A stretch of 64,000 bases of DNA from Candidatus Binatia bacterium (GCA_036382395.1 DASVHW010000043.1:7678-71677); one strand, 5' to 3'. Shown: positions 179 through 40,172, counted from the stretch's first letter. The notes: a model not told the origin generated them from the sequence alone. Numbers and translations: made by a program.

Positions 179-3100
179 GTGATGAAATTCCTCCGTTCGT
201 TGTGGTCCAGCCCTCGCCTGTGGGTCGTCGTAATCGTCGTCTGTGCGGCGGCGGTGCGGTTGATCCACATCGAGTGGGATGAGAACCACTTCTTCCACCC
301 CGACGAACGCGCGGTGGCGTTTTCGGTGCAACGGCTGTCATTCCGGCCGCTGCAGATGGATCCCGACTTCTTCGCCTACGGGTCGCTGCCCATCTACCTG
401 GCAAAAATCACCAGCAGTGCTTTGGCGCTCGTCGATCCGCATGCGGCAACCTATGACGGCGTCATCGTCAACGGGCGGCGTGTATCCGCCGTCATCGGGG
501 CGCTCACGGTTTTCCTGCTGATCATCCTGGGCAGTCGGCTGTACGACCGCAGCGTCGGGCTGTTGTCGGGCGTGCTGTTGGCCGCCTGCGCCCTCCATTT
601 GCAGAACTCGCGCTTCATGACCGTGGACGTCACGCTGACGTTCGTCGTCCTGCTGGCGTTGTACCTCCTCGTGCGGGTTGCCACCGAGGGCCGGCTGACG
701 CACTTCATCCTGGCGGGCATAACCATCGGCTTGGCGACCGCCACCAAGTTCAGCGCCATGCCGCTCTTTCTGCCGCTGGGCATCGCCACCTTACGTCGCC
801 TCTGGGTGGAGCGCCGATTCTTCCCGATCGCCGCTCGCTGCGGCCTCGCGGTAGTGGCAGCGGTCTTGGCATTTGCGCTGGCCGAACCATACGCCGTGCT
901 CCGTTTCGGCCGTTTCTACCATGACATCCTGGAACAGAGCCACATGGTGCGCAATGCGGGGACGTTCCCCTACACCACCCAGTACATGGGAACGCCGAAG
1001 TACTGGTACGACCTCGAGCAGCTGATCATCTGGGGCATGGCCCCGGCACTGGGATTGGCCGCGGTGTGGGGAACCGCGACCCGGGTGGTGGCGGGATTCC
1101 GGGAGCGCCGGATCGAGGAATGGGTCCTGCTCTCGTGGGTCGTCCCGTTTTTCCTGATCACCGGCTGGTTCGAGGTGAAGTTTCCGCGTTATCTGCTGCC
1201 GATCTATCCGCTCATGATCCTCTGGGCGGCGGAGTGGCTGGTCCGCAAGTACCGGAGCGGGACACTCTTCGGCCGCCTCACCGCCCCGCTGGTGGTGGTC
1301 GGTACGCTGGCGGCGGCCAGCGCTTTCATGTCGATCTACACGCGGCCGTTCACCGAAGTCACCGCGTCGCAATGGGCCTACCGCCACATCCCATCGGGCA
1401 GCAAGATCCTCACGCAGGACTGGGACGAAGGCTTCCCGATGTCGTTGCCGCTCCCCGGAGCCCAGGCGGAACGCTACCGTGTGGTACCCTTCGGATACTA
1501 TGAGCAGCCGGACAGCTCGTCCAAGGTCCAGCGGCTCAGCCAAGAGCTGGCGAGCGCCGATTACATCGTCTTCCAGACCAAGCGACTGTACGGTGCGGTG
1601 ACTCGCGCCCCGGAGCGCTTTCCGCTGACCACCAACTACTTCTACGAGCTGTTCGCCGGCGATCTCGGCTACACGTTAGAGCAAGAAGTGGCGGCGCGGC
1701 CGGGGCTCTTCGGCTTCGAGATTCCGGACGAGTTGGCGGACGAGTCGCTCACGGTCTACGACCATCCGAAAGTCTTGATCTTTCGCAACACCGAGCGTCT
1801 GGCCGCGCCCGTCATCGCGGAGAAGATCCTGCGCGGCCTTCCTTCGCGGCCGCTGACTCGGAATGATCTCCTGCTGGCGCGTCCCAGCGGTGGCCTACCG
1901 CTGGAAACGACCGGCGCCGCGCCCCCCATTCAGTCGAGCCTTCTCGCACTGGTCTTGTTTGCGGCGCTGGTGGAGATCCTGAGTCTGGCCGCCTATCCGG
2001 TATTGCGTGTGTGGCTGACCGGCGTTGGCATCCTGGCGTTGAGCAAAACGCTCGGCGTACTGCTCTTTGCCTACCTTTCCTGGCTGATGATCAGCCTAGG
2101 CGCGGCCGATTTCACTCAAGGAGCGCTCAGCGCCATGGCATTCGGGCTGGCTGCCGTTGGCGCGTTGATGTGGCGGCGCACTCGCGTTCCACTGTCGCGC
2201 GGGGAGATCATCTCCACCGAGGCGCTGTTCTGGGGCGCGTTCGCCTATTTTCTTGTCGTGCGCATGTACAACCCCGAAGTCTACTGGGGCGAGAAGCCGA
2301 TGGACTTCTCTTTTCTGAACACTCTGACCCGCACGACCACGCTGCCGCCGGCGGAGCCCTGGTTCGCCGGCTCGCCCCTGCAGTACAGCTACTTCGGCCA
2401 CTACACCGTCGCCGCGTTGGGCAAGACGCTGCACCTCGATCCAGCGCTCACCTTCAATCTCGGCATTGCACTGATTGGCGGACTGACGGCGGTGGCGGCG
2501 TTTTCTGTCGGCGCGGTGGTTACGGGCCAGTGGCAAACGGGCCTGTTGGCGGCCTTCTTCGTTGCCTTGATCGGCAATCTCGCAGGCCCGCGGGAATGGT
2601 TCGCCCGCCACGCCATCGGCTTCGATTACTTTTGGGCAACATCGCGCGTCATCCGGGATACGATCAACGAGTTCCCGTTGTGGAGCTTCTTGTTCGCGGA
2701 TCTGCACGCCCACGTGCTGGTCATGCCGATCTCGTTGACGTTCCTGTGTCTCACCGTGTTGTGGGTGCGCACGCACGTGCTGCAGTCGCGCCAGCAGCGC
2801 CCCCGAGGCACGACTCTGGCGCTCCTGGTTCTGCTGTGCCTGACGTTGGGCGCCATCATGGTGACCAACACCTGGAGCACTCCCACTTACATTCTGTTCT
2901 TCGTCTTTTTGCTGGGCACACTCTGGCTCACCGAAGCGGAGCACGGAGGGTGGCTGGGCTTTCTGTTCGGCGGCATCGCCCGGGTTGGTATTCCGAGCGC
3001 CCTGCTCGTGGTTGGCGCCTATGTGCTTTTCCATCCGTACTGGAGCCACTTCGTGCGGGCAGAAGGCGCATGGTTGGGCTGGGAGCGTCTCGGGCCTGAC

Positions 3101-4957: not shown

Positions 4958-4972
4958 GCTGACCCGGCACCC

Positions 4973-7609
4973 ATGCACGCAACCGAGGCCACCCAGGCTC
5001 CAAGGATGCAAACGACTCATGCGCCGCTGACGTCGTCCACGCCAGTCAGGTGGCGAGGGCTGCGGATACTGCTGCTCGTGGCCGCGCTGGCGAGCGCCGC
5101 CGCAGGCCAGTATTGGCTCAGCATCCGGCACGTCGCGCTCTGGTCAGCGCCAGCATGGATGGCCGCGCTGGTCTGCTTCATCCTTCTGTACATCCTCGGA
5201 CGCGATGCTCGTGAACTCCCTTCTCCGAACGACGGTGCGGGCTCACGGTATGCGCAGTGGGGTTGGCTAGCGCTGGTGCTGGCTGTCGGCGTCTTCTTCA
5301 CCGTCTTTCGCCTCAATCAGTTCCCGCCGGGGTTGAATCACGACGCCGCCTACGAGGGCTTGTACGCCATCCGTATTCTCAACGGACTGCCCTATACGCC
5401 GTACACTCCAGAGGCCTGGGGTCGAGAAACGTTCACCTTCTATCTCCGGGCACTCAGCGTGCTGCTCCTCGGCCCGACGCGGCTGGCGGTCACGCTGCCG
5501 TCGACGGTGGCCGGCATCTTCATTCTGCCCTTCTTCTTCGTCTGGGCACGCAAGATGTTCGGCGCACGCTTCGGCCTGATGGCGACGCTCCTCCTCGGCG
5601 TCTCGGGTTGGCACCTGGTCTTCAGCCGCACCGGCTGGCGTTCCGATTTCCAGCCGCTGTTCATGACCATCACCTGTTGTTTTTTCATACGCGGCATGGA
5701 CACCGGTCGTGCGCTGGATTTCGCCCTCAGTGGAATCGGCTTGGCCGCGGCCTTGAACACCTACAACGGCGCGCGTCTCTTCCCGCTGCTTTTCCCGCTC
5801 TGGCTCGTTGCCGTCCTGCTGCAGTCCTGGCACTGGCGCGGATTCCTCCGCCAGTACTGGCACGGTCTGCTGTCCATGGCGGTGGCCTTCGGCATCGCCG
5901 TGGCGCCGTTGGCCTGGTACGCGGTACATAATTGGGAGGTCTTCCAGGGCCGGGCGCACGCGTTGGCGGGCGCCAGCACGCTGGTTGGAGCCCTCAAGGT
6001 TACGGCGCTGCTGTTCAACTACCGGGGAAATGGCGATGACTTTTTCATCGATACGCCGGCGCTTGAATACCCCGCCGCGATATTCCTGGCCTTTGGCATC
6101 TTGTGGGGCCTCGCCCGGATCCGCGACGAGCGCGTGCAGTTTGTCTTGCTGGGACTGGTGATCAACGCTGCCCCCGGCCTGGTGAGCAAGCCGAATATGA
6201 ACCGGGACATCGGCACGATGCCGTTCGTCTACTTCTTCGCCGCCTTGGGAGCCATGTTCTTCGCCACGCAGATCAGGCGGCTCATCCCTCGCGTGGGCCA
6301 TGTGCTGGCCTTGGCGTTCCTGGTGGTCGCCGGCGCTTCGGCACTGCAAGCGACGTTTGCACAGTACCTGGGTCAGCACCGGCGGGCCGTATGGGGCTAC
6401 TACCCCGAGACCACCGTGCTCGGAAACTACATCAAGACACTGGTACCGCAGTACAACATCTGGGTCGGTGGCGCGAATTTTCCGCGCGACGCCTTGACCT
6501 ATCTCTCGTACACCGGCCAAGTCGACCCGATGCAGCGCAACTACACCTGGCTGGATGATGTCACCGTGCTGTTGCAGATGAGCCCGGGGCTCGCGGCCAG
6601 CAAGGGACTGGCGTTCGTCTTGGCGACCAACGAGGAACCGAGCAGAACGGTCCTGCGCCAATTGGAGCAGCGCTATCCGCAGCACCAGGTAGTCGACGTA
6701 CGTTACCCGGAAGAGAACGGCCCGGTCTTCGCCAGGGCGCTACTGGTAAGTCCCGAGACTGCGACCGAAACGCCGGCACCAGCGACCGCCCCAAAACCCG
6801 CAGAGCCGCCGACTCCCATCGGACAAGTACATCAGCCGCGCGGGGTAGCGGCGACCGGCAATGGCCATGTCTTCGTGTGCGACTTCGGCAACAACCGCAT
6901 TCAGGAGTTCGGACGTGATCTGAACCCTGTGCGGCAATGGGGCGGCAGCGGCCAGACGCCCGGACGGTTCAACCAACCCTGTGGCGTGGCGGTGGATCCC
7001 GCTGGACAAGTCTTCGTCGCCGACACATGGAACCACCGTGTCCAGGTCTTCTCCGCGGAAGGCAATTTCGTGCGCGCGATGGCGGCGGATTTCTACGGAC
7101 CGCGCGGCATCGCGGCGGACGCGAACGGCAGCGTATTCGTCGCCGACACGGGAAACAACCGGATCGTGCGCTTGTCGGCGACCGGCCAGAAGGAGAAGGA
7201 GTGGGGCGGTAAGGGCTCAGAGCCGGGACGGTTCCTGGAGCCGGTGGGCCTGGCGGTGGACGGCACTGGGCAGGTGTACGTGTGCGACAACGGCAATGGG
7301 CGGCTGCAGACTTTTACCCGCGACGGGGAATTGCTGAGTCAGTTCCCGGTGCCGGGATGGCAAAGCGGGGTGTATTCCGAACCCTACGTGACTCTCGATC
7401 CGCGCGGCAACATTTGGGTCACGGTGCCGAGCGCAAAAGAGGTCCGCAGCTATGACCGCGCTGGGAAGTTGTTGCGTACCATCACGGGACAGGGCACCGG
7501 TGGCGTGACCTTCGACACGCCGATAGGCATCGCGTACAGCACCGCCGCGCGCGAGTTGATCGTCGCCGACCTCGCCGACCGCGTGGTGCGCATCCCGGAC
7601 AGCCGGTGA
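4973..7609 (+). CDS. Membrane glycosyltransferase (GT-C, ArnT/PMT-like) fused to a C-terminal NHL-repeat beta-propeller (878 aa). Paralog of the upstream gene.
   Basis: ATG at 4973, only 15 nt after the upstream stop. About 560 aa of multi-TM ArnT-like domain, then an NHL domain ~75% identical in protein (~80% nt) to the C-terminus of the 179..4957 product, with the same blade motifs. Confidence 0.65.
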   Translation: MHATEATQAPRMQTTHAPLTSSTPVRWRGLRILLLVAALASAAAGQYWLSIRHVALWSAPAWMAALVCFILLYILGRDARELPSPNDGAGSRYAQWGWLALVLAVGVFFTVFRLNQFPPGLNHDAAYEGLYAIRILNGLPYTPYTPEAWGRETFTFYLRALSVLLLGPTRLAVTLPSTVAGIFILPFFFVWARKMFGARFGLMATLLLGVSGWHLVFSRTGWRSDFQPLFMTITCCFFIRGMDTGRALDFALSGIGLAAALNTYNGARLFPLLFPLWLVAVLLQSWHWRGFLRQYWHGLLSMAVAFGIAVAPLAWYAVHNWEVFQGRAHALAGASTLVGALKVTALLFNYRGNGDDFFIDTPALEYPAAIFLAFGILWGLARIRDERVQFVLLGLVINAAPGLVSKPNMNRDIGTMPFVYFFAALGAMFFATQIRRLIPRVGHVLALAFLVVAGASALQATFAQYLGQHRRAVWGYYPETTVLGNYIKTLVPQYNIWVGGANFPRDALTYLSYTGQVDPMQRNYTWLDDVTVLLQMSPGLAASKGLAFVLATNEEPSRTVLRQLEQRYPQHQVVDVRYPEENGPVFARALLVSPETATETPAPATAPKPAEPPTPIGQVHQPRGVAATGNGHVFVCDFGNNRIQEFGRDLNPVRQWGGSGQTPGRFNQPCGVAVDPAGQVFVADTWNHRVQVFSAEGNFVRAMAADFYGPRGIAADANGSVFVADTGNNRIVRLSATGQKEKEWGGKGSEPGRFLEPVGLAVDGTGQVYVCDNGNGRLQTFTRDGELLSQFPVPGWQSGVYSEPYVTLDPRGNIWVTVPSAKEVRSYDRAGKLLRTITGQGTGGVTFDTPIGIAYSTAARELIVADLADRVVRIPDSR

Positions 7610-20721: not shown

Positions 20722-21174
20722 ATGCCTGACCGTCCCCCGCACATCCGGCGGAGCCGACGCACCGACTTCAACGCGGTGATGAAGCTGCTGGCCACCAGCG
20801 GCATTCCGGTCCCGCCGCCCGATCGCGCCACACTACGGCGCTTCCGGCACATCGTTGCCGACCTCGGGACTGACTTCTACCTCGCTTTGGTTGACGGTAC
20901 GCCGGTCGGTCTCGTACACGTAACCTATGCGCGTGCACTCACGCATGGACCCCGGGCCGGACTCAACCAGCTTGTGGTCGCCGACTCGTTTCGCCACCGC
21001 GGCATCGGCGCAGCGCTCCTCGATTTCGCCGCGCGCCGGGCCCGCAAACGCGGCTGCACGATTCTCTCTTGCGCGTTGCCGGCCGCGGGCGCCTCTCTCC
21101 GTGAGCTCTTTGCGAAGACCGGTCTTGAACCGGGCGGCGAATGGTTCGTCAAGAGGCTGCGCAGTGATGAGTGA
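20722..21174 (+). CDS. GNAT-family N-acetyltransferase.
   Basis: Acetyl-CoA binding motif 'FRHRGIGAALLDFAARRARKRGC'. 150 aa. Stop overlaps the gdh start. Confidence 0.7.
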   Translation: MPDRPPHIRRSRRTDFNAVMKLLATSGIPVPPPDRATLRRFRHIVADLGTDFYLALVDGTPVGLVHVTYARALTHGPRAGLNQLVVADSFRHRGIGAALLDFAARRARKRGCTILSCALPAAGASLRELFAKTGLEPGGEWFVKRLRSDE

Positions 21175-24100
21175 GCACCTGCTGCACGGGGCGTACCGTG
21201 GCTGAGTTGTCCAAAGCCATCGCGCGCCTCATGGAAGAGCGCGAGCGCACGCAGCCGCAGACCGTATCGGCAGACGTGCCCAAACTGCGCCAGGTAATTG
21301 AGGCGGTTCGCGCCAAGGTCACCGCCGGCGAACGCCCGCTAGCCGAGGCGTTCGCTCGCCAACTGTTTGACAAGGACGGTGCGGAGTTCCTCGAGGAGCG
21401 GGAAGTCAGCGAGTTGGCGGCAATTGCCGTGGTTGCCTTCCGATTCGTCGTCGAGCGGAGTCAGGGGGAGCCGCGGGTACGGGTGTTTGATCCGGATATG
21501 ACTCGGGAGGGCTGGGCGGCACCGTGTTCAGTCGTCGAAAGCATCCTGCGGGACCGCCCCTTCATTGTCGATACGATTCAGGAGACCCTGCGGCGCTCCG
21601 GTTGTGTCCTGCAGCGCTTGCTGCACCCGACTTTCGCGGTGGAGCGGGATGGGCGGGGAGCGGCGCTGGCCGTCGGGCCGGCCGGGGCGCTCGGGCACAA
21701 GGAGTCGTTCGTACACGTCGAGGTCGAACGCGTCGCCGATCCCGAAGCATTGTCCGCCTTGCTTCAGCAGCGTCTGACCGAAGTCGTCCTCGCCACCGAG
21801 GATTATCAAGCGATGCGCGCCAAAGCGGAGGAGCTGGCAACGCAGCTGCACACGCGTCCGTTGCGGCCGCCATGGAATGCCGATGTCGATGAGATCGCCG
21901 CATTCCTCCGCTGGCTGGGCGAGAAGAATTTCGTCTTCTTGGGGTATCGCGAGTACCAGTTCGCGGGAAGAGGGGCGGAGCGGACGGCCGAAGTTCGGCA
22001 CGGCTCCGGACTGGGAATCTCGCGCAACGAGGATCGATCGAGCTTCGCGGCGCCTCGGTCGCTGCCCGAGGCGCTGCGCCGCCGGCTCAACGAGCTGCCA
22101 CTGCTCCTGGTGTCGAAGACCAATGCCGAAAGCCCCGTGCATCGGGCTGAACACATGGATTACATCGGCATCAAGGAGATCGATGAGAACGGACTGGTGG
22201 TCGGCGAGAGACGCTTTCTCGGCCTGCTCACCTCCAAGGCCTACACCGAGGAATCGGCAGCGGTACCCCTGCTGCGGCGTAAGCTTGCCGCCATTCTCGA
22301 CGCCGAGGGCGCCATCGAAGACTCGTACGACTACAAGTCGATCGTCACGGTCTTCGACAGCATCCCGAAGGCCGACCTGCTCGCGGCTTCAGTCCCTGAA
22401 CTCCGCGCCGAGATCAAGACCATTCTGGCAGCAGAGGGTGGCAGCGAGGTGAAGGTCCTACAGCGCCCCGACGCCCTCGGCCGCGGCATATTCATCACCA
22501 TCATCCTGCCGCGCGAACGCTTTTCCAACGACTTGTATCGGCGGGTTGAAGCCCGCCTTGCGCAGGCGTTTTCGGCCATCGTGCTCGATCAGCGCCTGGT
22601 GATGGACGAGCGCGATCAGGTACGGCTGCACTTCTATCTCGCCACCGCGCCGGAGAACGTCCGCGCCGTGGCAGCAGAAGACCTGCAGGCGCAAATCACC
22701 AGCTTGTTACGGACGTGGAACGACCGGCTTCGCGATGCGCTCCGTGAACAGTTTCCGCGGGACCAGGTGCGCACCCTGGCAGACCGGTACACCGCCGCCT
22801 TCTCGAACGCGTACAAGGCCGCCACCGACGTCACAGTCGCCATCCGCGACCTCCAGTGCATCGAGGCGCTATTGTCAACGCGCGCACCCCAGGTCGATCT
22901 CATCAACGATAGCGCTGCCGGCGAGGAGCGGTTCTCTGCCCTGAAACTCTACTTGGCGGAAACGGAATTGGTCCTCAGCGATTTCCTGCCGGTGCTTGAA
23001 AATCTCGGCCTCAAAGTGTTTGCCGAAGACGCGGTCGGCGTCGCCCTCCCGGAACTCGGACGGATGCGGATCCACACGTTTTTCGTCCAGGATACCGCCG
23101 GCGCACGCCTGGATATCGCGCCTGCGGCACCGTTGCTCCAGCCGGCGCTGCTGACGCTCTTGGCGGGCAGCGTTGAAAACGACCGGCTAAACGGCCTGAT
23201 CCTGGAGGCCGACTTGGATTGGCGCCAAGTGGATCTGCTGCGTGCGTACGTGAACCACGGGGTGCAGATCGGTACCGCTCCCACCCGCAGCACGCTGATG
23301 CACGCGCTGCTCGGTGCCCCACGATCGGCACGCCTGCTGTGGGAATACTTCGAGGCCAAGTTCGATCCGCTACGGCCCCCTACCCCGCGCGAACGTCTGG
23401 CGCAGGTGTTGCCGGAAATCGAGCAGCGCCTCATCGCCAGCCTCGATGCAGTGCAGAGCGTGAGCGACGATCGCATGCTGCGTGCCCTCTTCAGTGCCGT
23501 TGCCGCCACCGTGCGCACCAACTTTTTCCGCCTGGAGTCCACTGCCCCTCGGACGGACCGGGCACGGCCCGACGCGGCGCGCGCCGCAGACGGCGGACCG
23601 CGGGCAGCAATCGCCGTAAAGTTGGAATGTGCCCGTATCCCACAGCTGCCACGCCCGCACCCGGAATACGAAATCTACGTCCACGCCCCGAACGTGGAGG
23701 GACTGCATTTGCGTGGCGCCAAGGTGGCGCGCGGCGGGATCCGCCTGAGCGACCGGCCGGATGATTTTCGCACCGAAATCCTCGGCCTCATGCAGACGCA
23801 GATGGTCAAGAACGCCGTCATCATACCAGCCGGTGCCAAGGGCGGTTTCATTCCGAAGCGCCGTCCCGGGACACCGCTCAACTCGGGCCAGACCGTGGCG
23901 GCGTATCGGAGTTTCATCAGCGCACTCCTGGATGTAACCGACAACCTCGTTCAAGGGCGCCTGGTCCCGCCAGCGGCGACCTTGCTCTACGATGATCCGG
24001 ATCCCTACCTGGTGGTGGCGGAGGACAAGGGCACCGCAACCTTCTCTGATATCGCCAACGAGATCGCGGCACGACATCAGTTCTGGCTCGGTGACGCCTT

Positions 24101-26123
24101 CGCGTCCGGCGGGGCTCACGGCTACGATCACAAGAAGGAAGGCATCACGGCGCGTGGCGCGTGGGAATGTGTGCGCCGTCACTTCCGCGAGATGGGAAGG
24201 AACGCGGACCGCGAGGTCATCACCGTCGTCGGCATCGGCGACATGAGTGGCGACGTATTTGGCAACGCGCTTTTACTGTCCCGCCGCGTGTGCCTGCGCG
24301 CGGCCTTCAACCACGTGCACATCTTCCTCGATCCTTCCCCGGACCCCGCCCGCGCCTTTGCCGAACGCGAGCGGCTGTTCGCTCTGCCGCGATCCAGCTG
24401 GTCCGATTATACCGCCAGTTTGATCAGTGAGGGTGGTGGCGTGTTTTCCCGCGCCGCAAAGAAAGTCCCACTGTCGGCACCCGTGCGCACCATGCTCGCA
24501 CTCGACAGCGAATACGCCACCGGCGAGGAAGTCGTGTGCGCCATCTTGCGGATGGACGCCGACCTGTTATGGAATGGTGGTATTGGAACCTACGTAAAAG
24601 CGAGTGATGAGACGCACGTCGGCGACAGCGCCAACGACTACGTGCGCATCAACGCGTCGGAACTGCGGGTGCGCGTGGTGGCGGAAGGTGGCAACCTCGG
24701 CTTCACGCAACGGGCACGTATCGAGTACGCGCTCCGCGGCGGGCGGATCAACACCGACGCCATCGACAACTCCGCGGGCGTGGACATGTCCGACCACGAG
24801 GTGAACTTGAAAATCGCGCTCGCCGGGCCAGTCGAGAAAGGACACCTGACCTTCGCCGAGCGCAACCGGCTACTGACCGAGCTGACCCCGGAAGTCACGC
24901 GCCGCGTCCTGTCGCACAACCGCCTCCAGGCCCGTATTCTCAGCCTCGATCAACTCCAAAGCCAGACACGGCTGAATGACTTCCGCGAGCTGATCACCCA
25001 ACTTGAAAACGAAGGAGGGCTCGACCGCCAACTCGAAGGCCTGCCAGATCGGGACACGCTGCGCAACCGCCGTAGCGTTCTCCTCGGCCTGACGCGGCCG
25101 GAGCTCGCCGTCTTGCTGGCGCACAGCAAGCTTTGGCTGCAGCACCACGTCCTGGCCTCGGCCCTGCCCGACGATCCCTTCTTCGAATCCTACCTGCGCG
25201 CGTATTTCCCCGAGGTGATCGATACGCGCTTCGGCCAGGCCGTGCGCAGCCACCGTCTGCGGCGTGAAATCATCGCCGTCGAGGCCGCCAATGCCCTCAT
25301 CGACACGATGGGGGCGGCATCCGTCAACCGGGTCGTCCATGATACCGGCACCGACCCCGCCTCGGTAGTCCGCGCGTGGGCCCTCGTAGTCGCGGCGAGC
25401 GGCGCCGCCGACCTGTGGGCGGAGATTGGCAATGCCGATCCAGCACTGCCCGTGGCAGCGGAGGTGCGCTGCTGGTCGACACTCCAGGGCGCGGTCGAGC
25501 GCGCCAGCAAGTGGATCATCGAAACGCAACCATCCACGCTGCCGGCGGCCCAGCTCGCCAACGCCTTGGGCACTTCGACGAAAGAGCTGCTCAGCATCCT
25601 GCCTCGCATTCTACCGCCTGCGGCACGAGCGGGATTGGCGGAGGCGGCTGATGCCTTGGCCAGCGAGGGAACCCCTCGCGCCCTCGCCGAACGCATCCCT
25701 CCCCTCGAACGCCTGGCGGAACTATTTGAAGTTGATCATATCGCCGGCGAACTCGGCGCGGCCCGCGCCACCGCCGCCGAAGCATACTACCAGGTGGATG
25801 ATCTGGTCGATCTCGCCTGGGTTCGCCAAAGCCTGACGGAGCTGCCGGCGGAAGACCGCTGGGAACGGCGCGCGGTTGAAGGCCTGATTGAAGGCTTGGT
25901 GTACGCGCGTCGGCAGCTGACGCACGCCATCCTCCTCCGCTGCCAGGAGGGAGGGGGGGGAGTTGAGGACTGCCTGCACGCCTACGTTCAGGAACACCAG
26001 GAACAGCTGCAGAAGCTGCGCACGCTCGTCAGCGACATCAAGAGCGCCAGGCGCACAACGCTTGCGGCGCTGCTGGTGGTGATGCGTGCGATCGGCCGGC
26101 TGGCCGACCGCGAGGACACGTGA
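21171..26123 (+). CDS. gdhB: NAD-specific glutamate dehydrogenase, large (~180 kDa) GdhB/Bac_GDH type.
   Basis: 1650 aa. Catalytic-core motifs 'GGIRLSDRPDDFRTEILGLMQTQMVKNAVIIPAGAKGGF' and 'GDMSGDVFGN'. The start is uncertain: GTG at 21171 or ATG at 21231. Confidence 0.9.
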   Translation: MSTCCTGRTVAELSKAIARLMEERERTQPQTVSADVPKLRQVIEAVRAKVTAGERPLAEAFARQLFDKDGAEFLEEREVSELAAIAVVAFRFVVERSQGEPRVRVFDPDMTREGWAAPCSVVESILRDRPFIVDTIQETLRRSGCVLQRLLHPTFAVERDGRGAALAVGPAGALGHKESFVHVEVERVADPEALSALLQQRLTEVVLATEDYQAMRAKAEELATQLHTRPLRPPWNADVDEIAAFLRWLGEKNFVFLGYREYQFAGRGAERTAEVRHGSGLGISRNEDRSSFAAPRSLPEALRRRLNELPLLLVSKTNAESPVHRAEHMDYIGIKEIDENGLVVGERRFLGLLTSKAYTEESAAVPLLRRKLAAILDAEGAIEDSYDYKSIVTVFDSIPKADLLAASVPELRAEIKTILAAEGGSEVKVLQRPDALGRGIFITIILPRERFSNDLYRRVEARLAQAFSAIVLDQRLVMDERDQVRLHFYLATAPENVRAVAAEDLQAQITSLLRTWNDRLRDALREQFPRDQVRTLADRYTAAFSNAYKAATDVTVAIRDLQCIEALLSTRAPQVDLINDSAAGEERFSALKLYLAETELVLSDFLPVLENLGLKVFAEDAVGVALPELGRMRIHTFFVQDTAGARLDIAPAAPLLQPALLTLLAGSVENDRLNGLILEADLDWRQVDLLRAYVNHGVQIGTAPTRSTLMHALLGAPRSARLLWEYFEAKFDPLRPPTPRERLAQVLPEIEQRLIASLDAVQSVSDDRMLRALFSAVAATVRTNFFRLESTAPRTDRARPDAARAADGGPRAAIAVKLECARIPQLPRPHPEYEIYVHAPNVEGLHLRGAKVARGGIRLSDRPDDFRTEILGLMQTQMVKNAVIIPAGAKGGFIPKRRPGTPLNSGQTVAAYRSFISALLDVTDNLVQGRLVPPAATLLYDDPDPYLVVAEDKGTATFSDIANEIAARHQFWLGDAFASGGAHGYDHKKEGITARGAWECVRRHFREMGRNADREVITVVGIGDMSGDVFGNALLLSRRVCLRAAFNHVHIFLDPSPDPARAFAERERLFALPRSSWSDYTASLISEGGGVFSRAAKKVPLSAPVRTMLALDSEYATGEEVVCAILRMDADLLWNGGIGTYVKASDETHVGDSANDYVRINASELRVRVVAEGGNLGFTQRARIEYALRGGRINTDAIDNSAGVDMSDHEVNLKIALAGPVEKGHLTFAERNRLLTELTPEVTRRVLSHNRLQARILSLDQLQSQTRLNDFRELITQLENEGGLDRQLEGLPDRDTLRNRRSVLLGLTRPELAVLLAHSKLWLQHHVLASALPDDPFFESYLRAYFPEVIDTRFGQAVRSHRLRREIIAVEAANALIDTMGAASVNRVVHDTGTDPASVVRAWALVVAASGAADLWAEIGNADPALPVAAEVRCWSTLQGAVERASKWIIETQPSTLPAAQLANALGTSTKELLSILPRILPPAARAGLAEAADALASEGTPRALAERIPPLERLAELFEVDHIAGELGAARATAAEAYYQVDDLVDLAWVRQSLTELPAEDRWERRAVEGLIEGLVYARRQLTHAILLRCQEGGGGVEDCLHAYVQEHQEQLQKLRTLVSDIKSARRTTLAALLVVMRAIGRLADREDT

Positions 26124-31155: not shown

Positions 31156-32907
<1,752 letters not shown>

Positions 32908-33379
32908 GCCTCGCTCTCTCGTGCCGACTCCTACTACTTATGGGGAGACCGAAACGGCTTCAGGGGAGGTCCGGACTACGGGAATCCTCGAAGCTATACA
33001 CTTCCGAGGCCTACGCACAGCTATACCTGGTCAGATCCGGTTGCCACCGAAGCTCTTGGCGGGTTTGAGCTTCACAGCCAAGGGCGCCTTCTAGGGGGAG
33101 GAGTACTCACGTATCGAACGAATCTTAGCTCGGCAAAGCATTTAGACAAGGTGGGGGGTGGTAGTCAAGGCCCTTTTCGCTGTGTGCTGATCTTTCTTCA
33201 GATTATTCCGGCGCGGCGTGAGAGACCGTTGCCTCCGGCAGCGGACACCAGCTACTCACATTCCGCCGAGTCGGGGCGGATTAGCGGAAGAGCCGTAACG
33301 GCTCAGAAGAATTAATAGGCAGCGTATTTACTAGTCGGAAATGGCCTGCTAGCTAGCTGTCCGCTGGCAGAGGGGATCG

Positions 33380-33976
33380 ATGGCAGCACAGAAGGATTCC
33401 AATCACGCTGCTTCACGCGAGGGATTTCTCACACGGCTGCGCGCCGCCACAGGGCAGCCGCTGGTGGCAGGCGATGCATTTGGCGAAAGCTTCCTGCTCA
33501 CCCGGCTGAGCGACGCCGTGCAGTGGGCACGGAAGTATTCGTTCTTCCCCTACCCGTTCGTCACGGCATGCTGCGGCATGGAGTACTTCTCCGCCGCGGG
33601 GCCACGCTTCGACCTCGACCGTTTCGGTGCCGCGTTGCCCCGCTTCACGCCGCGGCAATCCGATTTGTTGATGGTGGTGGGCACGATCTCCCATCGGTTG
33701 GCACCGATACTGCAGCGCGTGTGGGAGCAGATGGCCGAACCCAAATGGGTGGTCTCCTTCGGGGCGTGCACGTCGTCGGGTGGCCCCTACAACAACTACG
33801 CGGTGGTGCAAGGCATCGACACGATCATCCCGGTGCATCTCTACATCCCGGGCTGTCCGCCGCGCCCCGAGGCGGTGCTGGACGGTCTGATCAAACTCCA
33901 GAAGCGAGTGCAGGAAGAACGCGGAGGGCAGCCGCTGCCGCATGTTCATGGCAGCGGGCGGTTGATCGAGGACTGA
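33380..33976 (+). CDS. nuoB: NADH-quinone oxidoreductase subunit B (20 kDa / PSST, cluster N2).
   Basis: 'CCGMEY', 'GACTSSGGPYN', 'IPGCPPRPE' Cys motifs. ATG at 33380 with an AGGGGA RBS. Confidence 0.9.
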   Translation: MAAQKDSNHAASREGFLTRLRAATGQPLVAGDAFGESFLLTRLSDAVQWARKYSFFPYPFVTACCGMEYFSAAGPRFDLDRFGAALPRFTPRQSDLLMVVGTISHRLAPILQRVWEQMAEPKWVVSFGACTSSGGPYNNYAVVQGIDTIIPVHLYIPGCPPRPEAVLDGLIKLQKRVQEERGGQPLPHVHGSGRLIED

Positions 33977-33982
33977 GAGGCC

Positions 33983-35581
33983 ATGCCGACCATCACTATT
34001 GACGGCCGAACCATTGAAGCACCAGCAAACGCGATGCTGCTGCCCGTCGCACTCGAGAACGGCATTCATATTCCGCACTACTGCTGGCATCCGAAACTGT
34101 CCATCGACGGCAGTTGCCGCATGTGCCAGGTCGAGGTCGAAGGCAGCCCGAAGCTCGTCATCTCGTGCAATACGCCCATCCGCGACGGCATGGTGGTGCG
34201 CACGACGACGCCGGCCGTACAGAAAGCGCGGCGGGCCGTGCTCGAGCTGCTGTTGGTGAACCATCCGCTCGATTGCCCCATTTGCGACAAAGCCGGCGAA
34301 TGCCTGCTGCAAGACTACTCCTTCGCCTTCGGTAGCCGGGAGGGGCGCAGCCGCGAACCACGGCGCAAGCTGCAGAAGCGCAAAGATATCGGCCCGCGCA
34401 TCGTGCTGGACCAAGAGCGCTGCATTCTCTGCCGACGCTGCGTGCGCTTCTGCCGCGAGATCACCGGCACCAACGAGTTGGGTGTGTTCAACATGGGCGA
34501 CCGCTCCATCCTCGACGTCATGGAGGGCAACCCGCTCGCCAACGATTACTCGATCTGCACCGCCGATATCTGCCCGGTCGGCGCGCTGGGGAACAAGGAG
34601 TTTCACCACCGCCTGCGCGTCTGGTTCCTCAAGAAAACGCCGAGCCTCTGTCCGAATTGCGCCAACGGCTGCAACATCACCGTGGATCATTATCGGGAAC
34701 GCATCTGGCGGCTCATGCCGCGGCGCAACGACGCCGTGAACGAGACCTGGATGTGTGATGCGGGACGTCTCAATCACGGCTATGTCAACAGTCCGGATCG
34801 CTTGCGCCAACCCCTCGTGCGCCGTAACGGGCAGCTGCAACCCTGCGAGTGGGAAGAGGCCCTTTCCACCGCAGCTTCACGCCTGCGGCGCAGCGCCCAT
34901 GACAGCGGGGGACGGGGGCTCGGAGCCATCGCCTCGCCCCACCTCACCAACGAAGAACACTTCCGTTTCTGGCAGCTATTGCGGGTCCTGGGTGTGCCGA
35001 ACGTCGATGTTGCCGTACGCACCGGGCCGAGCGACAACTTCCTGATCAAGGCGGAAAAGGCGGCGAACGCACGAGGCGCGAGAGACATCGGACTGCGGCC
35101 GAGCCCCGAAGGTGTGGGCCTGCCGGCACTGCTGGAGGCGGTCGCCAGCGGGCGCATCACGACGTTGTACGTGTGCGGACCCGATCTGTGGGAGACCGCC
35201 GATCGCGCCTTGCTCACGAAGGCCATGGATCGGCTCGAGTACCTGATCGTACAGGACATTTGCCGCTCGCCGCTGGCTGAGCGCGCCCACCTCGTCCTGC
35301 CGTCGCTGACGTTCGCGGAGAAGGTCGGGACCTTCACCAACTACGCCGGGCGGGTGCAGCGCTTGCACCGTGCCTTCGAACCCCCGGACAACCAACCAAG
35401 CGATGGGGAGATTTTCAGCCGGCTCCTCGGGCAGCTCAGTGAAGGTCGCTGGACCTTTCAACCGGAATCGGTCCTCGAAGAGATTGCCGCAGCGGTGCCG
35501 GCGTACGCCGGACTTACCTACGCGGGCGTCGGCCCGCTCGGCATTGCCGTCGCGGCAGCGAGTGCGGGAGCAGCCACCTGA
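33983..35581 (+). CDS. nuoG: NADH-quinone oxidoreductase subunit G (75 kDa), short form (532 aa).
   Basis: N-terminal 2Fe-2S ('CWHPKLSIDGSCRMCQVEV') and 4Fe-4S ('HPLDCPICDKAGECLLQD', 'CILCRRCVRFC') motifs, then a shortened molybdopterin-oxidoreductase-like domain. Confidence 0.8.
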   Translation: MPTITIDGRTIEAPANAMLLPVALENGIHIPHYCWHPKLSIDGSCRMCQVEVEGSPKLVISCNTPIRDGMVVRTTTPAVQKARRAVLELLLVNHPLDCPICDKAGECLLQDYSFAFGSREGRSREPRRKLQKRKDIGPRIVLDQERCILCRRCVRFCREITGTNELGVFNMGDRSILDVMEGNPLANDYSICTADICPVGALGNKEFHHRLRVWFLKKTPSLCPNCANGCNITVDHYRERIWRLMPRRNDAVNETWMCDAGRLNHGYVNSPDRLRQPLVRRNGQLQPCEWEEALSTAASRLRRSAHDSGGRGLGAIASPHLTNEEHFRFWQLLRVLGVPNVDVAVRTGPSDNFLIKAEKAANARGARDIGLRPSPEGVGLPALLEAVASGRITTLYVCGPDLWETADRALLTKAMDRLEYLIVQDICRSPLAERAHLVLPSLTFAEKVGTFTNYAGRVQRLHRAFEPPDNQPSDGEIFSRLLGQLSEGRWTFQPESVLEEIAAAVPAYAGLTYAGVGPLGIAVAAASAGAAT

Positions 35582-36123
35582 TGGCGGCGCGGGCGGTTTC
35601 CGTTTCACGGCCGCAGCCGATGCAGCAGCACTTGGGGCGCGCGGCCCTGGCGGTGCTGGTCGGGCTGTGGGTCACCAATCGTCATTTCATGCGCAACCTG
35701 TGGGGTTTCATCCGCCGCAAGCCGACGGTCTTTACCGTCCAGTTCCCGGAGCAACGGCTGGAACTCCCCAACGCCTTTCGCGGTATGCCGGTGCTGGTGC
35801 AGATGGACAACGGCAAGGAGCGCTGCGTGGCGTGCGGGTTGTGCGAGTGGGCGTGTCCCACCGACTGCATCACGATTTTCCCGGCGGAGACCGCCGACGA
35901 GATCGAACGCTACCCGGCGGTATTTGACATCAACCTGTCGCGTTGCATGTATTGCGGCCTGTGTGAAGAAGCCTGCCCGGAGGAAGCGATCGTCATGAGC
36001 CAGCGCGTGGAGGTCGCCACCTACACCCGACGCGCCATGCTCTGGCACAAGGAAGACCTGCTCGTTCCCGTCTCGCAGCTCGGCAAACGCCTCCAACACC
36101 TGCGCCGTGGCTACGACCGCTAG
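35581..36123 (+). CDS. nuoI: NADH-quinone oxidoreductase subunit I (2x[4Fe-4S], TYKY).
   Basis: 'CVACGLCEWACP' and 'CMYCGLCEEACP' ferredoxin motifs. Start overlaps the nuoG stop (TGATG). Confidence 0.85.
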   Translation: MAARAVSVSRPQPMQQHLGRAALAVLVGLWVTNRHFMRNLWGFIRRKPTVFTVQFPEQRLELPNAFRGMPVLVQMDNGKERCVACGLCEWACPTDCITIFPAETADEIERYPAVFDINLSRCMYCGLCEEACPEEAIVMSQRVEVATYTRRAMLWHKEDLLVPVSQLGKRLQHLRRGYDR

Positions 36124-36140
36124 CTGAAAGCTCGAAGCCG

Positions 36141-37892
36141 ATGGCTGAACCTGTCGTTGAAAGCTCCCCCGCCCCAGCCCATCCGATTCTGGATCGCCTG
36201 CAGGCACAATTCCCACACGACGTGACCGGCGTCAGTCTGTACCGCGGAGACGTCAGCGCCAGCATAGCGCCGGAACGCATCCTCGACGTAGCGCGCTTCA
36301 TCCGCGATGATCCCGCGCTGCGCTTCGACATGCCGCTGGATGTGACGGCGGTCGATTATCTGGGACAGCACCCGCGCTTCGAAGTCGTGTATCATTTGTA
36401 TTCTACCACGCACCATCACCGACTGCGGCTGAAGGCGCGTGTGCCGGAAGACCGCCCCCTCGCCAGCGTGACCCCGGTGTGGGTGGGCGCCAACTGGCTG
36501 GAACGGGAGACGTACGATATGTACGGCATCCGTTTCGCCGGCCATCCGGATCTGCGCCGGATTTATCTGTACGAGGAGTTCCAGGGGCATCCCTTGCGGA
36601 AAGACTACCCCAAGGACAGGCGGCAGCCGCTCATCGGCCCGGGCTCACGCCGCGGCGTGTCTACTGGCGACGACCGCCCGTACTCCACCGACTTGCCGAA
36701 ACCCCCGCACGGCAAAGGCATGCTGGGGGCGGACTTGATGCGGGTACAGCTCGGGCCGTCCCATCCTGCCACTCACGGCACGGTGCGTATCGTCGTGGAT
36801 CTGGACGGTGAAACCATCACCAACGCCGACGTGCAGGTCGGATTTCTGCATCGTGGCTTCGAGAAGGAATGCGAGAGCGGTTTCTACTATCAGGCGATTC
36901 CCTACACCGATCGCCTGAATTACAGTTCCGCGATCCTCTGCAACGTCGGTTACTGCATGGCGGTGGAGAAGTTGCTGGGGATCGAAACCACGCCGCGCTG
37001 CCAATTCCTGCGCGTCCTGTCCGGCGAGATGGCCCGCATGGCCGACCACTTCCTGTGTGTCGGCGCCACCGCGCTCGAGCTGAACGCGTTCACGCCCTTC
37101 TTGTACTGTCTCCAGGCACGCGAGCTGGTGTGGGACGTCGTCGATGCCCTCTGCGGTGGCCGCGTCACCAGCAACTACATCCGCATCGGCGGCGTCAGCG
37201 CCGACCTGCCTGAAGGCTTTGCCGAACTCGCTCGACTGAAGATTTCGAAGGCGCTGAAGCTGCTCGACGACACCGAAAAGTTGCTGACAGAGAATCCGAT
37301 TTTCCGCGCCCGCATGGAAGGTGTGGGCTATCTGCCGGCCGAGGAGCTCATCGCCTACGGCGTGTGTGGTCCCGTGCTGCGGGCGGCCGGTGTGGATCTC
37401 GATCTGCGGCGGGCGCAGCCATACTTGGTGTACGATCAGCTCGAATTCGACGTGCCCCTCGGAACGCGGGGCGACAACATGGACCGCTATCTGGTCCGCC
37501 TCGTGGAGCTTCGACAGAGCGCCCGCATCATCGAGCAATGCTTGCGCATGTTGCCGCCTGGTCCAGTGGACATCGACGACCCGGCGATTCGCTGGCCGGG
37601 AAAGTCAAAAGTGTTCGGCCGCATGGAGGAGCTCATCGACCAGTTCAAGCTGGTCACCGAAGGTGTCAAGCCGCCGCCCGGCGAAGTGTACGTCGGCACC
37701 GAGTCGGCCAACGGCGAGATCGGCTTCTTCCTGGTCAGCGATGGCACGGGAAAGCCCTACAAGTGCCGCGCCCGCACGCCGAGTTTTTCGAACACCCAGC
37801 CGCTGGCGCGCATGATTCAGGGACGGCTGATTGCCGATCTGGTCCCGACGTTCGACTTGCTCAACATGATCGGAGGAGAATGTGACCGCTGA
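36141..37892 (+). CDS. nuoCD: Fused NADH-quinone oxidoreductase subunits C and D (30 kDa + 49 kDa).
   Basis: N-terminal NuoC ('VWVGANWLERETYDMYGIRFAGHPDLRRIYL') joined to NuoD ('GPSHPATHGTVRIVVDLDGE', C-terminal '...GGECDR'). Confidence 0.9.
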   Translation: MAEPVVESSPAPAHPILDRLQAQFPHDVTGVSLYRGDVSASIAPERILDVARFIRDDPALRFDMPLDVTAVDYLGQHPRFEVVYHLYSTTHHHRLRLKARVPEDRPLASVTPVWVGANWLERETYDMYGIRFAGHPDLRRIYLYEEFQGHPLRKDYPKDRRQPLIGPGSRRGVSTGDDRPYSTDLPKPPHGKGMLGADLMRVQLGPSHPATHGTVRIVVDLDGETITNADVQVGFLHRGFEKECESGFYYQAIPYTDRLNYSSAILCNVGYCMAVEKLLGIETTPRCQFLRVLSGEMARMADHFLCVGATALELNAFTPFLYCLQARELVWDVVDALCGGRVTSNYIRIGGVSADLPEGFAELARLKISKALKLLDDTEKLLTENPIFRARMEGVGYLPAEELIAYGVCGPVLRAAGVDLDLRRAQPYLVYDQLEFDVPLGTRGDNMDRYLVRLVELRQSARIIEQCLRMLPPGPVDIDDPAIRWPGKSKVFGRMEELIDQFKLVTEGVKPPPGEVYVGTESANGEIGFFLVSDGTGKPYKCRARTPSFSNTQPLARMIQGRLIADLVPTFDLLNMIGGECDR

Positions 37893-39744
37893 GCACGTCC
37901 ACACGGGCGGCGCCGAGATCTCCGGCACACGAGCGGGCAGCCGCGGTGACCATAAGCTGTCAGACGCGTGTCGCGCCAGCATTGTGGCGCTGCGCAAGAA
38001 TTACCCGCAGCCCCGCGCGGCGCTGTTGCCGGCCTTGCACCTGGCACAGGCGGAATACGGCTACCTGCCACGCGAGATCGTCGACGAAATTGCGGGATTG
38101 CTGGACCTGCTCCCCATCCAGGTCCAGGAGGTCGTGTCGTTTTATCCCATGTTCCACAGCACCAAGGTGGGACGCTGCCACATCCAGGTGTGCACCAACA
38201 TCGCCTGTGCCTTGGGTGGTGCGCGCAAGCTGGTACGGCAAATCGAATCCACCCTGGGCATTCGCCCCGGCGAGGTCGCGCCGGACGGCAAGTTCTCGCT
38301 TGCCGAGGTGGAGTGTCTCGGATCGTGCGGCACCGCGCCCGTGCTCCAGCTCAACAACCAGCCGTTCCTCGAACGCGTGACAGCGGATGACATTGGCCGA
38401 TTGCTGAAAGCTGACGATCCGCTTCAGGTCACGCGCGAAGCACCAGAAATCTCGATGATCCCGGAGGGCATCGAAGGCTATCTCCTCCCGCCCAATGGGC
38501 AGGCACGCCGCGCCATCGACGACTACCTCGCGGTGGGCGGCTACCAGACAGCGCAGAAAGCTTGGCGCGAAATGCAGCCCGAGGAGATTCAAGAGATCGT
38601 CAAGGCCTCGGGCCTGCGCGGCCGCGGCGGCGCCGGTTTTGGAACCGGTATGAAGTGGACCTTCATGCCGAAGGAATCGCAGAAGCCGTGCTACCTTGCC
38701 GTCAACGGCGACGAGAGCGAACCCGCCACCTTCAAGGACCGGCAGATCCTCCAGCGCAACCCACATCAGTTCCTCGAGGGCGTGTTGATCGCCGGGCGCG
38801 CCATCCGCGCCCAGGCCGCCTATGTCTACCTGCGCGGCGAGTACGTCGTTCCCTACCTCACCTTGATGGAGGCCAGGGAGCAAGCGTACGCGCGCGGCCT
38901 CTTCGGCGACAACATCATGGGCACGGGAAACAAGTTCGACGTCTACGTCACCCGCGGCGCCGGCGCCTATATCTGCGGCGAAGAAACCGGCATGATGGAA
39001 TCGCTGGAAGGCAAGAAGGGCCAGCCCCGCAAGCGCCCGCCGTTTCCGGCCGCCTCGGGACTGTGGGCTTGCCCGACGACGGTCAACAACATCGAAACGA
39101 TGACCCATGTCCCGGCGATCGTCGGACGCGGGGCCGAGTGGTTCAAGAGCATGGGCACCGAGAAGAGCACGGGCAACACGCTTTTCGGCGTCAGCGGCCA
39201 CGTGCGCCGGCCGGGCGTGTACGAGCTGCCACTCGGCACGACGATGCAGGAGATCATCGAGAAGCATGCGGGCGGTTTGGCGAACGGCCGGCCGGTGAAG
39301 GCGATCATTCCAGGCGGCGTGTCGATGCCGGTGCTCACCGCTGACAGTATCGGCGTGCGCATGGATCACGATTCGCTGCAGAAGGCGGGCACGCTGCTCG
39401 GGACCGGTGGCATCGTGGTGATGGACGATTCCGTCTGCGTGGTGCGCGCCGCCGCCGTGATTGCGCGCTTCTTCCGGCACGAAACCTGTGGCCAGTGCAC
39501 CAATTGCCGCGAGGGCACCGCGTTCCTCTACAAGCTGCTCATGCGCATCGAGAACGGCGACGGAACGGAGGCCGACCTCGACACCATCGCTCAGGTGTGC
39601 GGCTACATGGAAGGGCAAACGATCTGCGTGCTCTCCGATGCCGCGGCATGGGCGGCCGGTAACTTCCTCAAGCGCTTTCGTAGTGAGTTCGAGCAGCACA
39701 TCCGAGAAAAGCGCTGCCCATTGCCGAACAGTTTTGAAATGTGA
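37882..39744 (+). CDS. nuoEF: Fused NADH-quinone oxidoreductase subunits E and F (24 kDa 2Fe-2S + 51 kDa FMN/NADH-binding).
   Basis: NuoE thioredoxin-like 2Fe-2S ('CTNIACALGG ... ECLGSCGTAP'), then NuoF ('GLRGRGGAGFGTGMKW', 'ETCGQCTNCREG'). 11-nt overlap with nuoCD. Confidence 0.9.
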   Translation: MTAEHVHTGGAEISGTRAGSRGDHKLSDACRASIVALRKNYPQPRAALLPALHLAQAEYGYLPREIVDEIAGLLDLLPIQVQEVVSFYPMFHSTKVGRCHIQVCTNIACALGGARKLVRQIESTLGIRPGEVAPDGKFSLAEVECLGSCGTAPVLQLNNQPFLERVTADDIGRLLKADDPLQVTREAPEISMIPEGIEGYLLPPNGQARRAIDDYLAVGGYQTAQKAWREMQPEEIQEIVKASGLRGRGGAGFGTGMKWTFMPKESQKPCYLAVNGDESEPATFKDRQILQRNPHQFLEGVLIAGRAIRAQAAYVYLRGEYVVPYLTLMEAREQAYARGLFGDNIMGTGNKFDVYVTRGAGAYICGEETGMMESLEGKKGQPRKRPPFPAASGLWACPTTVNNIETMTHVPAIVGRGAEWFKSMGTEKSTGNTLFGVSGHVRRPGVYELPLGTTMQEIIEKHAGGLANGRPVKAIIPGGVSMPVLTADSIGVRMDHDSLQKAGTLLGTGGIVVMDDSVCVVRAAAVIARFFRHETCGQCTNCREGTAFLYKLLMRIENGDGTEADLDTIAQVCGYMEGQTICVLSDAAAWAAGNFLKRFRSEFEQHIREKRCPLPNSFEM

Positions 39745-39791
39745 GAAGAGCCGTCAGCATTCAGCTAACAGCGGTCAGCTTCGGAGACCAG

Positions 39792-39828
39792 GTTCCCTCT
39801 CCCTCCGGGAGAGGGTCAGGGTGAGGGG
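39792..39828. repeat. REP-like palindromic intergenic repeat, copy 1 (gttCCCTCTCCCtccGGGAGAGGGtcagggtgagggg).
   Basis: 9-bp perfect inverted repeat CCCTCTCCC/GGGAGAGGG plus a 'tcagggtgaggg' tail. A near-identical copy is at 44926..44962. Sits just downstream of the nuoEF stop. Confidence 0.6.
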
Positions 39829-39893
39829 ACTAGATGATGGCTTCGACAAACGAGCTGAAAGCTGAGCGCTGAAAGCTGAGCGCTGGAGGATTC

Positions 39894-40172
39894 ATGCCCG
39901 GACCGATTCTTCGCAACGCAGTGGTGAAATACTTCGGCACACCGAACCAGACCGAAGGCAGCGTCAACGAGCCGCGCGAACGCGAAGAGCACGGCATGCA
40001 CTTCAATGAGAAGTGGACCTACCGCGGCCCGCGGCGCGACCCCGCTGGTGCCGTCGAGCGCATCATCTATTGGCACCGCTACGACTACGTCGGCGCGATG
40101 ATCCGCAAGACCAAAGACGGCGAGTGGCAGAAGGACGACAGCCTCCCACAAGCGCTCGGTCGGACGGCGTAG
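39894..40172 (+). CDS. Hypothetical small protein (92 aa).
   Basis: ATG with a strong RBS (ctGGAGGAttcATG). No family recognised. Confidence 0.4.
   Translation: MPGPILRNAVVKYFGTPNQTEGSVNEPREREEHGMHFNEKWTYRGPRRDPAGAVERIIYWHRYDYVGAMIRKTKDGEWQKDDSLPQALGRTA

Follow-up and report, generated by a model that had tools for sequence, protein, structure and literature searches.

Which enzyme is encoded by a complex I locus that holds no gene of the membrane arm? The question is raised by positions 33380-39744 of a stretch of 64,000 nucleotides (nt) from a Candidatus Binatia bacterium (GCA_036382395.1 DASVHW010000043.1:7678-71677), here called the window, in which genes for the peripheral arm of the NADH:quinone oxidoreductase (Nuo, complex I) follow one another in an unusual order. 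An original prediction, made from the sequence alone, had offered two readings, namely a membrane arm encoded elsewhere (a split nuo system) or a second, soluble complex I-like module. According to the analysis described here, the locus is likely to be one half of a split complex I in this Candidatus Binatia bacterium, namely the operon for the peripheral arm. The enzyme looks ordinary, a proton-pumping NADH:quinone oxidoreductase whose complete hydrophilic arm is encoded at this site, and it is the layout that is unusual. The kind of system is already known; new are a class-wide partition of the nuo genes by arm, the gene order B-G-I-C-D-E-F, two gene fusions specific to the lineage, and two proteins that may be additional components.

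Five nuo genes and the cofactor sites of their products

Five open reading frames (ORFs) on the plus strand, which together span window positions 33380-39744, were assigned to NuoB, NuoG, NuoI, NuoCD and NuoEF with Pfam and NCBIfam models (aa, amino acids; FMN, flavin mononucleotide):

33380-33976, plus strand: nuoB, 198 aa; Oxidored_q6, nuoB_fam 198 bits; carries cluster N2
33983-35581, plus strand: nuoG, short form, 532 aa; TIGR01973 461.8 bits
35581-36123, plus strand: nuoI, 180 aa; TIGR01971 123 bits; clusters N6a and N6b
36141-37892, plus strand: nuoCD fusion, 583 aa; Complex1_30kDa and Complex1_49kDa; quinone-site subunit
37882-39744, plus strand: nuoEF fusion, 620 aa, GTG start; NADH/FMN input subunit

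The genes are as tightly packed as had been predicted, with junctions of at most 17 nt: nuoB and nuoG are 6 nt apart, nuoG and nuoI overlap by 1 nt, nuoI and nuoCD are 17 nt apart, and nuoCD and nuoEF overlap by 11 nt. The order B-G-I-CD-EF, from which nuoA, nuoH and nuoJ to nuoN are missing, is not the canonical colinear nuoA-N layout. As NuoE, NuoF and NuoG are all encoded at the locus, it does not belong to the 11-subunit complex I-like type either, which has no NADH module. The original prediction had also stated that nuoA is lacking upstream, where about 470 bp separate nuoB from the divergent rpoD, and that nuoH and nuoJ to nuoN are lacking downstream. Both statements held: the gap measured 472 bp, and no nuoA, nuoH or nuoJ to nuoN was detected in the entire 64 kb by a coding-potential pass with Pfam searches on each long ORF or ORF rich in transmembrane (TM) segments. 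A tblastn search of the window with NuoA, H, J, K, L, M and N from a canonical operon gave zero matches. The hydrophobic proteins of the window are giant DUF2298/PMT/NHL glycosyltransferase-like proteins, a PHO4 phosphate transporter, an MFS exporter, an LPG-synthase-like and an EamA-like protein.

The top matches of all five products were bona fide complex I subunits, both by family and by solved structure. NuoB found its best PDB match in Thermus Nqo6 (E 5.6e-51); the ligands of cluster N2, a point singled out by the original prediction, all proved to be in place, since the four of them, including the tandem CC, align to Nqo6 (motifs ACCGME, GACTSSGG and PGCPP). NuoG contains the Pfam domains Fer2_4, NADH-G_4Fe-4S_3, Fer4_Nqo3, Molybdop_Fe4S4 and Molybdopterin, and its TIGR01973 score lies just below the cut-off of 470 because the protein is short. 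Its cluster motifs are N1b (C34, 45, 48 and 62), N5 (H94, C98, 101 and 107), N4 (C147, 150, 153 and 197) and N7 (C223, 226, 230 and 258). NuoI carries the CxxCxxCxxxCP motif twice, at residues 82 and 122. In NuoEF, a 2Fe-2S_thioredx domain (residues 38-176) precedes Complex1_51K/SLBB/NADH_4Fe-4S domains (residues 240-606), and the chain scored 575 bits with TIGR01959, over the cut-off of 558.65. It possesses the cysteines of N1a (104, 109, 145 and 149) and N3 (536, 539, 542 and 582) as well as the FMN loop motif GAGAYICGEETG; the best PDB match of its NuoF part was Thermus Nqo1 (E 3.6e-131). NuoCD comprises Complex1_30kDa (residues 42-160) and Complex1_49kDa (residues 315-583, 335 bits) domains, is most similar in the PDB to Aquifex NuoCD2 (7Q5Y_B, E 9e-122) and aligns also to mitochondrial 49-kDa subunits. 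Inspection of the quinone site, likewise proposed at the outset, revealed that the His (HPATHG) and the Tyr (DRLNY) equivalent to Thermus His38 and Tyr87 are kept and line up with the mitochondrial and Aquifex residues, with a substitution at a third position that is weighed below. The motifs YTDRLNY, ACCGME, GACTSSGG and PGCPP were present in all intact Binatia loci scanned, and GPSHP[AS]THGTVR in most of them.

These data bear on the second of the two readings, a free-standing soluble NADH dehydrogenase (diaphorase) of complex I type which has no membrane arm and reduces a soluble acceptor. The surroundings would suit it, as 33 kb upstream and 24 kb downstream contain no membrane subunit and all five Nuo products are predicted to be soluble; the structure of the homologous Aquifex peripheral arm was solved alone (7Q5Y). 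Fusions of NuoE and NuoF are, moreover, typical of soluble HoxF/FdsB-type enzymes: HoxF, FdsB and HydB diaphorases combine a NuoE-like [2Fe-2S] domain and a following NuoF-like FMN domain in one chain (7E5Z_B, 5XF9_A, 7T2R_B), as does NuoEF of the window. However, NuoEF reached 322 bits against the whole chain of FdsB as compared to 442 bits against Thermus Nqo1 alone, and its partners are NuoB, NuoCD, NuoI and NuoG, not the catalytic subunits of a hydrogenase or formate dehydrogenase (FDH). Models for such enzymes (HoxU, HoxE, Fdh-alpha) scored far under their cut-offs. The locus also does not encode a soluble [NiFe] hydrogenase or FDH module, the large subunit being of NuoD type and the molybdopterin region of NuoG being truncated. 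NuoCD lacks the N-terminal Cys pair of the [NiFe] site and ends in GGECDR, so that no [NiFe] ligand set offers an alternative active site. No role is known for NuoB, NuoCD or NuoI other than in a membrane-bound complex, and the matching membrane operon of relatives, described below, is stripped of exactly these genes. The class-wide conservation of the NuoD quinone-site and N2 motifs suggests that quinone reduction, a reaction dependent on NuoH, is under selection; intact motifs argue for a quinone-reducing, NuoH-dependent enzyme and not for a free-standing soluble module. The soluble reading found no positive support, and we consider it very improbable.

Conservation of the operon and membrane-arm operons in relatives

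A genome scan with NuoEF peptide patterns, which covered one genome per GTDB species, identified 54 loci (numbered with the prefix L), and their gene order was mapped by tblastn. The order B-G-I-C-D-E-F was found in every Binatia-type locus long enough to show it, i.e., in about 40 independent assemblies, confirming that the non-canonical order noted for the window is a recurrent one. Over all these assemblies, NuoEF identities spanned 54-96%; in the scan, NuoEF of the loci was 63-96% identical to that of the window, except in the frameshifted L062, and in the Binataceae-type loci L011-L013 NuoF was 61-62% identical. The order was also kept in GCA_026004215.1 (a 1.74-Mb contig), GCA_021324455.1 and ENA contigs, with unrelated flanks, and eight independent metagenome contigs carried an identical NuoCD with unchanged neighbours. 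All of the best 120 NuoEF homologues were fused chains of about 600 aa, and the named ones among them were labelled Binatia, Binataceae or, in older entries, 'Deltaproteobacteria'. NuoEF of the window is identical to an NCBI protein from a metagenome-assembled genome (MAG) of a 'Candidatus Binatia bacterium', encoded on a contig of 73,192 bp.

The source of the window is itself a MAG, and frameshifts do occur in some related long-read MAG contigs (L062, L065); a chimeric contig or a binning error could, in principle, have scrambled the pieces of an ordinary nuo operon. Yet the same order and junctions stand on the eight contigs with identical NuoCD, both recur in about 40 assemblies that differ in project and assembler, and the genes are joined by overlaps of 1 nt and 11 nt. 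Recurrence across so many assemblies with differing flanks means that the operon is a real, inherited unit. An assembly artefact is excluded by this recurrence, and what chance might be left to it is negligible.

Some Binataceae carry an MFS transporter gene inserted in the peripheral-arm operon, between nuoG and nuoI (L154, 3544-4989; L155, 4009-5454; L150, 1-388).

No membrane subunit was detected by tblastn within 10 kb of any Binatia peripheral-arm locus. The loci of Gemmatimonadota, Planctomycetota, Verrucomicrobiota and Limnocylindrales proved to be canonical operons with separate nuoE and nuoF, and with nuoI between nuoH and nuoJ where the locus extends there; at the Latescibacterota locus L056, tblastn revealed no nuoB or nuoI. 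A Myxococcota-labelled MAG (L044, 9633-21100) has the order A-E-F-G(505 aa)-H-J-K-L-M-N, and B, C, D and I are absent at this locus; its NuoF (56% identity) and NuoG (47%) are the closest relatives of the window's proteins outside Binatia. Non-Binatia matches of the scan had been considered as fused NuoEF and were rejected, as ORF analysis showed separate E and F.

A KEGG Orthology (KO) survey, which did not address synteny, reported a full set of complex I subunit genes for every Binatota genome (Murphy et al. 2021, PMC8262859, legend of Fig. S4). Where these genes may lie was indicated by L065, a 2.3-Mb contig which had matched the NuoE part only: there, a NuoE-like gene is followed by nuoH-J-K-L-M-N. 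NuoH of L065 and of L044 was used as a profile to find further membrane-arm loci. The best 120 NuoH matches consisted of the Myxococcota-labelled L044 type and of a narrow, Binataceae-labelled clade of L065 type, other Binatia lineages lying outside this set. Matches of the L065 type were 73-93% identical, and named ones were labelled Candidatus Binataceae. In GCA_035524375.1 and GCA_027318025.1, a gene for a NuoE-like protein of 166 aa and nuoH-J-K-L-M-N are flanked by coaD and an rsmD-like gene on one side and by an L-PSP gene on the other, all three on the minus strand.

Scanning JGI metagenomes with the Binataceae NuoH profile yielded another 80 loci with identities of 62-100%. In all 80, nuoJ directly follows nuoH, and nuoI, B, C, D, F and G are absent; in the canonical operons compared, nuoI always stands between nuoH and nuoJ. 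Three variants were distinguished, one with the NuoE-like gene, one without it and one with nuoA before nuoH. The last was seen in three contigs only (L146-L148; 68% G+C, unassigned lineage), where nuoA directly precedes nuoH. Judged by gene content, the peripheral and membrane operons complement each other, with nuoA and the additional NuoE-like gene as the exceptions. When the flanks of the roughly 40 peripheral loci were compared with those of 83 membrane-arm loci (L065, L068-L149), the only non-nuo gene in common was a Fur homologue; hence, the two operons are not close neighbours.

The NuoE-like gene at the head of the Binataceae membrane-arm operon (L068, 9511-10011; L149, 9508-10008; L065, 9839-10435) encodes a protein of 166-198 aa with all four [2Fe-2S] cysteines kept, and it overlaps the start of nuoH. 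The families which possess this second NuoE-like gene already carry a NuoE domain fused to NuoF.

Pairing of the two operons and the proposed enzyme

Two operons with complementary contents could be parts of one enzyme; alternatively, the genes of the window could constitute a duplicate or exchangeable peripheral module. A full nuo operon, or an 11-subunit nuoABCDHIJKLMN operon, would then exist elsewhere, and the window would encode an isozyme or an NADH-input module docking on another membrane complex. There are precedents: several nuo clusters are common in related phyla, with nuoA-N plus nuoABCDHIJKLMN in MBNT15 (PMC9386147), and genomes with a single nuoEFG and the remaining genes in two copies were listed by Spero et al. 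(2015). Within the class, the L077 contig carries a second cluster A2-B2-C2-D2-H2 beside its E'-H-J-K-L-M-N operon. This second cluster, however, brings its own B, C, D and H and does not need a module of the window's type, whereas the genes supplied here are precisely those that the membrane operons without I, B, C and D require. Furthermore, NuoE and NuoF occurred only in the B-G-I-C-D-E-F context in each Binatia assembly reached by the NuoEF pattern scan. A duplicate module is thus unlikely.

Several observations nevertheless weigh against a split complex I as the identity of the locus. The residue equivalent to Asp139 of Thermus Nqo4 (ALDxGA) is Glu in most loci of the window's sub-lineage (ALELNA, NuoCD residue about 313), which is a conservative change. 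The nuoA gene is found in neither operon type of Binataceae-type genomes (L068, L149, L069-L145 and all Binatia peripheral loci). The membrane operon of the window's genome or sub-lineage was not among the best 120 NuoH matches, and no assembly was encountered with both operons, the seven context look-ups having led to seven different assemblies. MAG labels can err through mis-binning. Finally, the divergent second cluster of L077 (18029-21095 on a 342-kb metagenome contig) lies just downstream of E'-H-J-K-L-M-N; its NuoB is 42% identical to that of the window, and the cluster looks, by its genes, like a paralogue of the 11-subunit type. The class thus contains paralogues of complex I-like modules, and which arms belong together is a matter of deduction. 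The first reading of the original prediction, a membrane arm encoded elsewhere, is probable for the window's own genome; it fits the conserved operon, the conserved quinone-site and N2 residues, the complementary operon in Binataceae and the published survey.

For the split complex I, we infer that the genome of the window also holds a membrane operon of the H-J-K-L-M-N type and that both sets of products form one enzyme. The nuo genes of Binatia would be partitioned along the structural boundary between the arms into two operons. The first, nuoB-G-I-C-D-E-F plus a small Binatia-specific gene, would provide the NADH-oxidising and quinone-reducing modules; the second, nuoH-J-K-L-M-N elsewhere on the chromosome, would provide the membrane arm and, depending on the lineage, be headed by the NuoE-like gene, by nuoA or by neither. 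By analogy with the canonical enzyme, NADH would reduce FMN in the NuoF part, and electrons would pass via N3, N1b, N4, N5, N6a, N6b and N2 to menaquinone, the site of which would be the interface of NuoB, NuoD and NuoH. Quinone reduction would then drive proton pumping by NuoL, M and N and by H/J/K.

It is also possible, if doubtful, that complex I of Binatia has a non-canonical set of subunits. The 92-aa product encoded downstream of nuoEF would serve the peripheral arm as a lineage-specific additional subunit or as an assembly factor, and the second NuoE-type [2Fe-2S] protein of Binataceae would be an added component that binds to the membrane arm or is supplied together with it; the split between the arms would then reflect two modules, each regulated and assembled independently.

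With hydrophilic subunits in one operon and antiporter-like and channel subunits in another, the arrangement parallels the way in which complex I arose from modules and is assembled in steps. The five polypeptides, two of them fusions, represent a natural minimal peripheral arm that could be expressed alone, as was done for Aquifex, and the 92-aa product is a candidate for a small partner protein not seen before. Caution is advisable with pathway callers that rely on colinear nuo operons. The understanding of how complex I works is unchanged.

The same seven hydrophilic core subunits and all cofactor motifs occur in the canonical complexes of Escherichia coli (Nuo), Thermus thermophilus (Nqo1-14) and Mycobacterium smegmatis (Nuo), and NuoCD is fused in E. 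coli as well. Differences from these are the order B-G-I-C-D-E-F, the fusion of E and F, the reduced NuoG and the position of the membrane genes away from the locus. The 'minimalistic' peripheral arm of Aquifex aeolicus (7Q5Y) likewise has a fused NuoCD and a reduced NuoG (632 aa), whereas its E and F are separate chains, unlike in the window. The nearest relatives recovered outside Binatia, from Myxococcota, Gemmatimonadota and Planctomycetota, have NuoG-homologous segments of about 500 aa; unlike the window, they show the canonical order A-B-C-D-E-F-G-H-I-J-K-L-M-N with E and F separate. The nuo genes of Aquifex are spread over several loci, with E, F and G separated from B, CD, H, I and J-N, which lie together; in Binatia, the split follows the boundary between the arms. 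Cyanobacterial NDH-1 and the nqo genes of Rhodothermus marinus (two operons plus single genes) are further examples of one enzyme encoded at several loci. These splits are not known to divide the genes cleanly into one set for each entire arm.

Fusions, short NuoG and adjoining genes

Fused NuoCD is well known; among Binatia, the C-D fusion is confined to the window's sub-lineage. The E-F fusion is shared by this sub-lineage and the Binataceae-type loci L011-L013, and in another Binatia sub-clade E and F are separate with the gene order unchanged. A search of 1.84 billion cluster representatives retrieved at least 12 other 50%-identity clusters with the E and F parts in one chain (41-54% identity) and many HoxF/FdsB-like E-F fusions at 35-40% identity. 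The NuoE-F fusion, as far as these sequences tell, is uncommon but not unique; it was correctly recognised in the original prediction and is less of an oddity than had been stated.

NuoG has its best match among solved structures in M. smegmatis NuoG and aligns to residues 16-382 and 527-625 of that protein, so that about 145 residues from the middle and the molybdopterin-type domain at the C-terminus are missing. The predicted length of 532 aa was confirmed. It is less odd than had been stated, since clade C of complex I (Spero et al. 2015; e.g., Gemmatimonas aurantiaca and some Deltaproteobacteria) generally has a short NuoG, with a mean length of 493 aa; the shortness is a known feature of one clade, which the complex I of the window resembles in NuoG length and nearest relatives.

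The operon is adjoined by the following features:

31156-32907, minus strand: rpoD, divergent from nuoB
32908-33379, no strand: rpoD-nuoB intergenic region, 472 bp; presumed operon promoter and 5' untranslated region
39745-39893, plus strand: structured spacer between nuoEF and the 92-aa gene, 149 nt; RNA fold
39894-40172, plus strand: 92-aa gene ('S92'), probable sixth gene of the operon

The intergenic region contains no ORF with a coding-type G+C content at third codon positions, no sigma-70 consensus site and no Rfam match; judged by position, the promoter presumably lies here. Rfam gave no match in the whole window, hence no known leader or riboswitch precedes nuoB.

At the other end, the operon probably runs on to position 40172 and takes in the 92-aa gene. 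This gene is conserved and restricted to Binatia; its family has no Pfam domain, and the few named members are labelled Binataceae. For the protein, a confident model of a small alpha+beta fold was predicted, and it could be a lineage-specific accessory subunit or assembly factor of complex I. The 149-nt spacer in front of the gene forms a hairpin of very high stability (RNA fold of -74.7 kcal/mol, with z = -5.6 as compared to shuffled sequences) and holds a tandem 14-mer (GCTGAAAGCTGAGC, twice); a terminator scan of the spacer revealed no terminator-like site. The spacer is common to the 96%-identical relative L014 and absent in the 81-87% identical relatives L015 and L016, in which the small gene follows within 31-43 nt of nuoEF. 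From this distribution, a palindromic element seems to have been inserted here recently.

Elsewhere in the window, two adjacent plus-strand genes encode giant membrane proteins of 1592 aa (179-4957) and 878 aa (4973-7609), both with PMT-type glycosyltransferase domains and C-terminal NHL repeats, the first also with DUF2298. These large TM-rich ORFs at 179-7609 had been considered as fused membrane subunits and were rejected because they are DUF2298/PMT/NHL proteins. A large-type NAD-specific glutamate dehydrogenase of 1650 aa with Bac_GDH_CD and ACT domains is encoded at 21171-26123 on the plus strand; its gene is preceded and overlapped by a small gene for a GNAT acetyltransferase.

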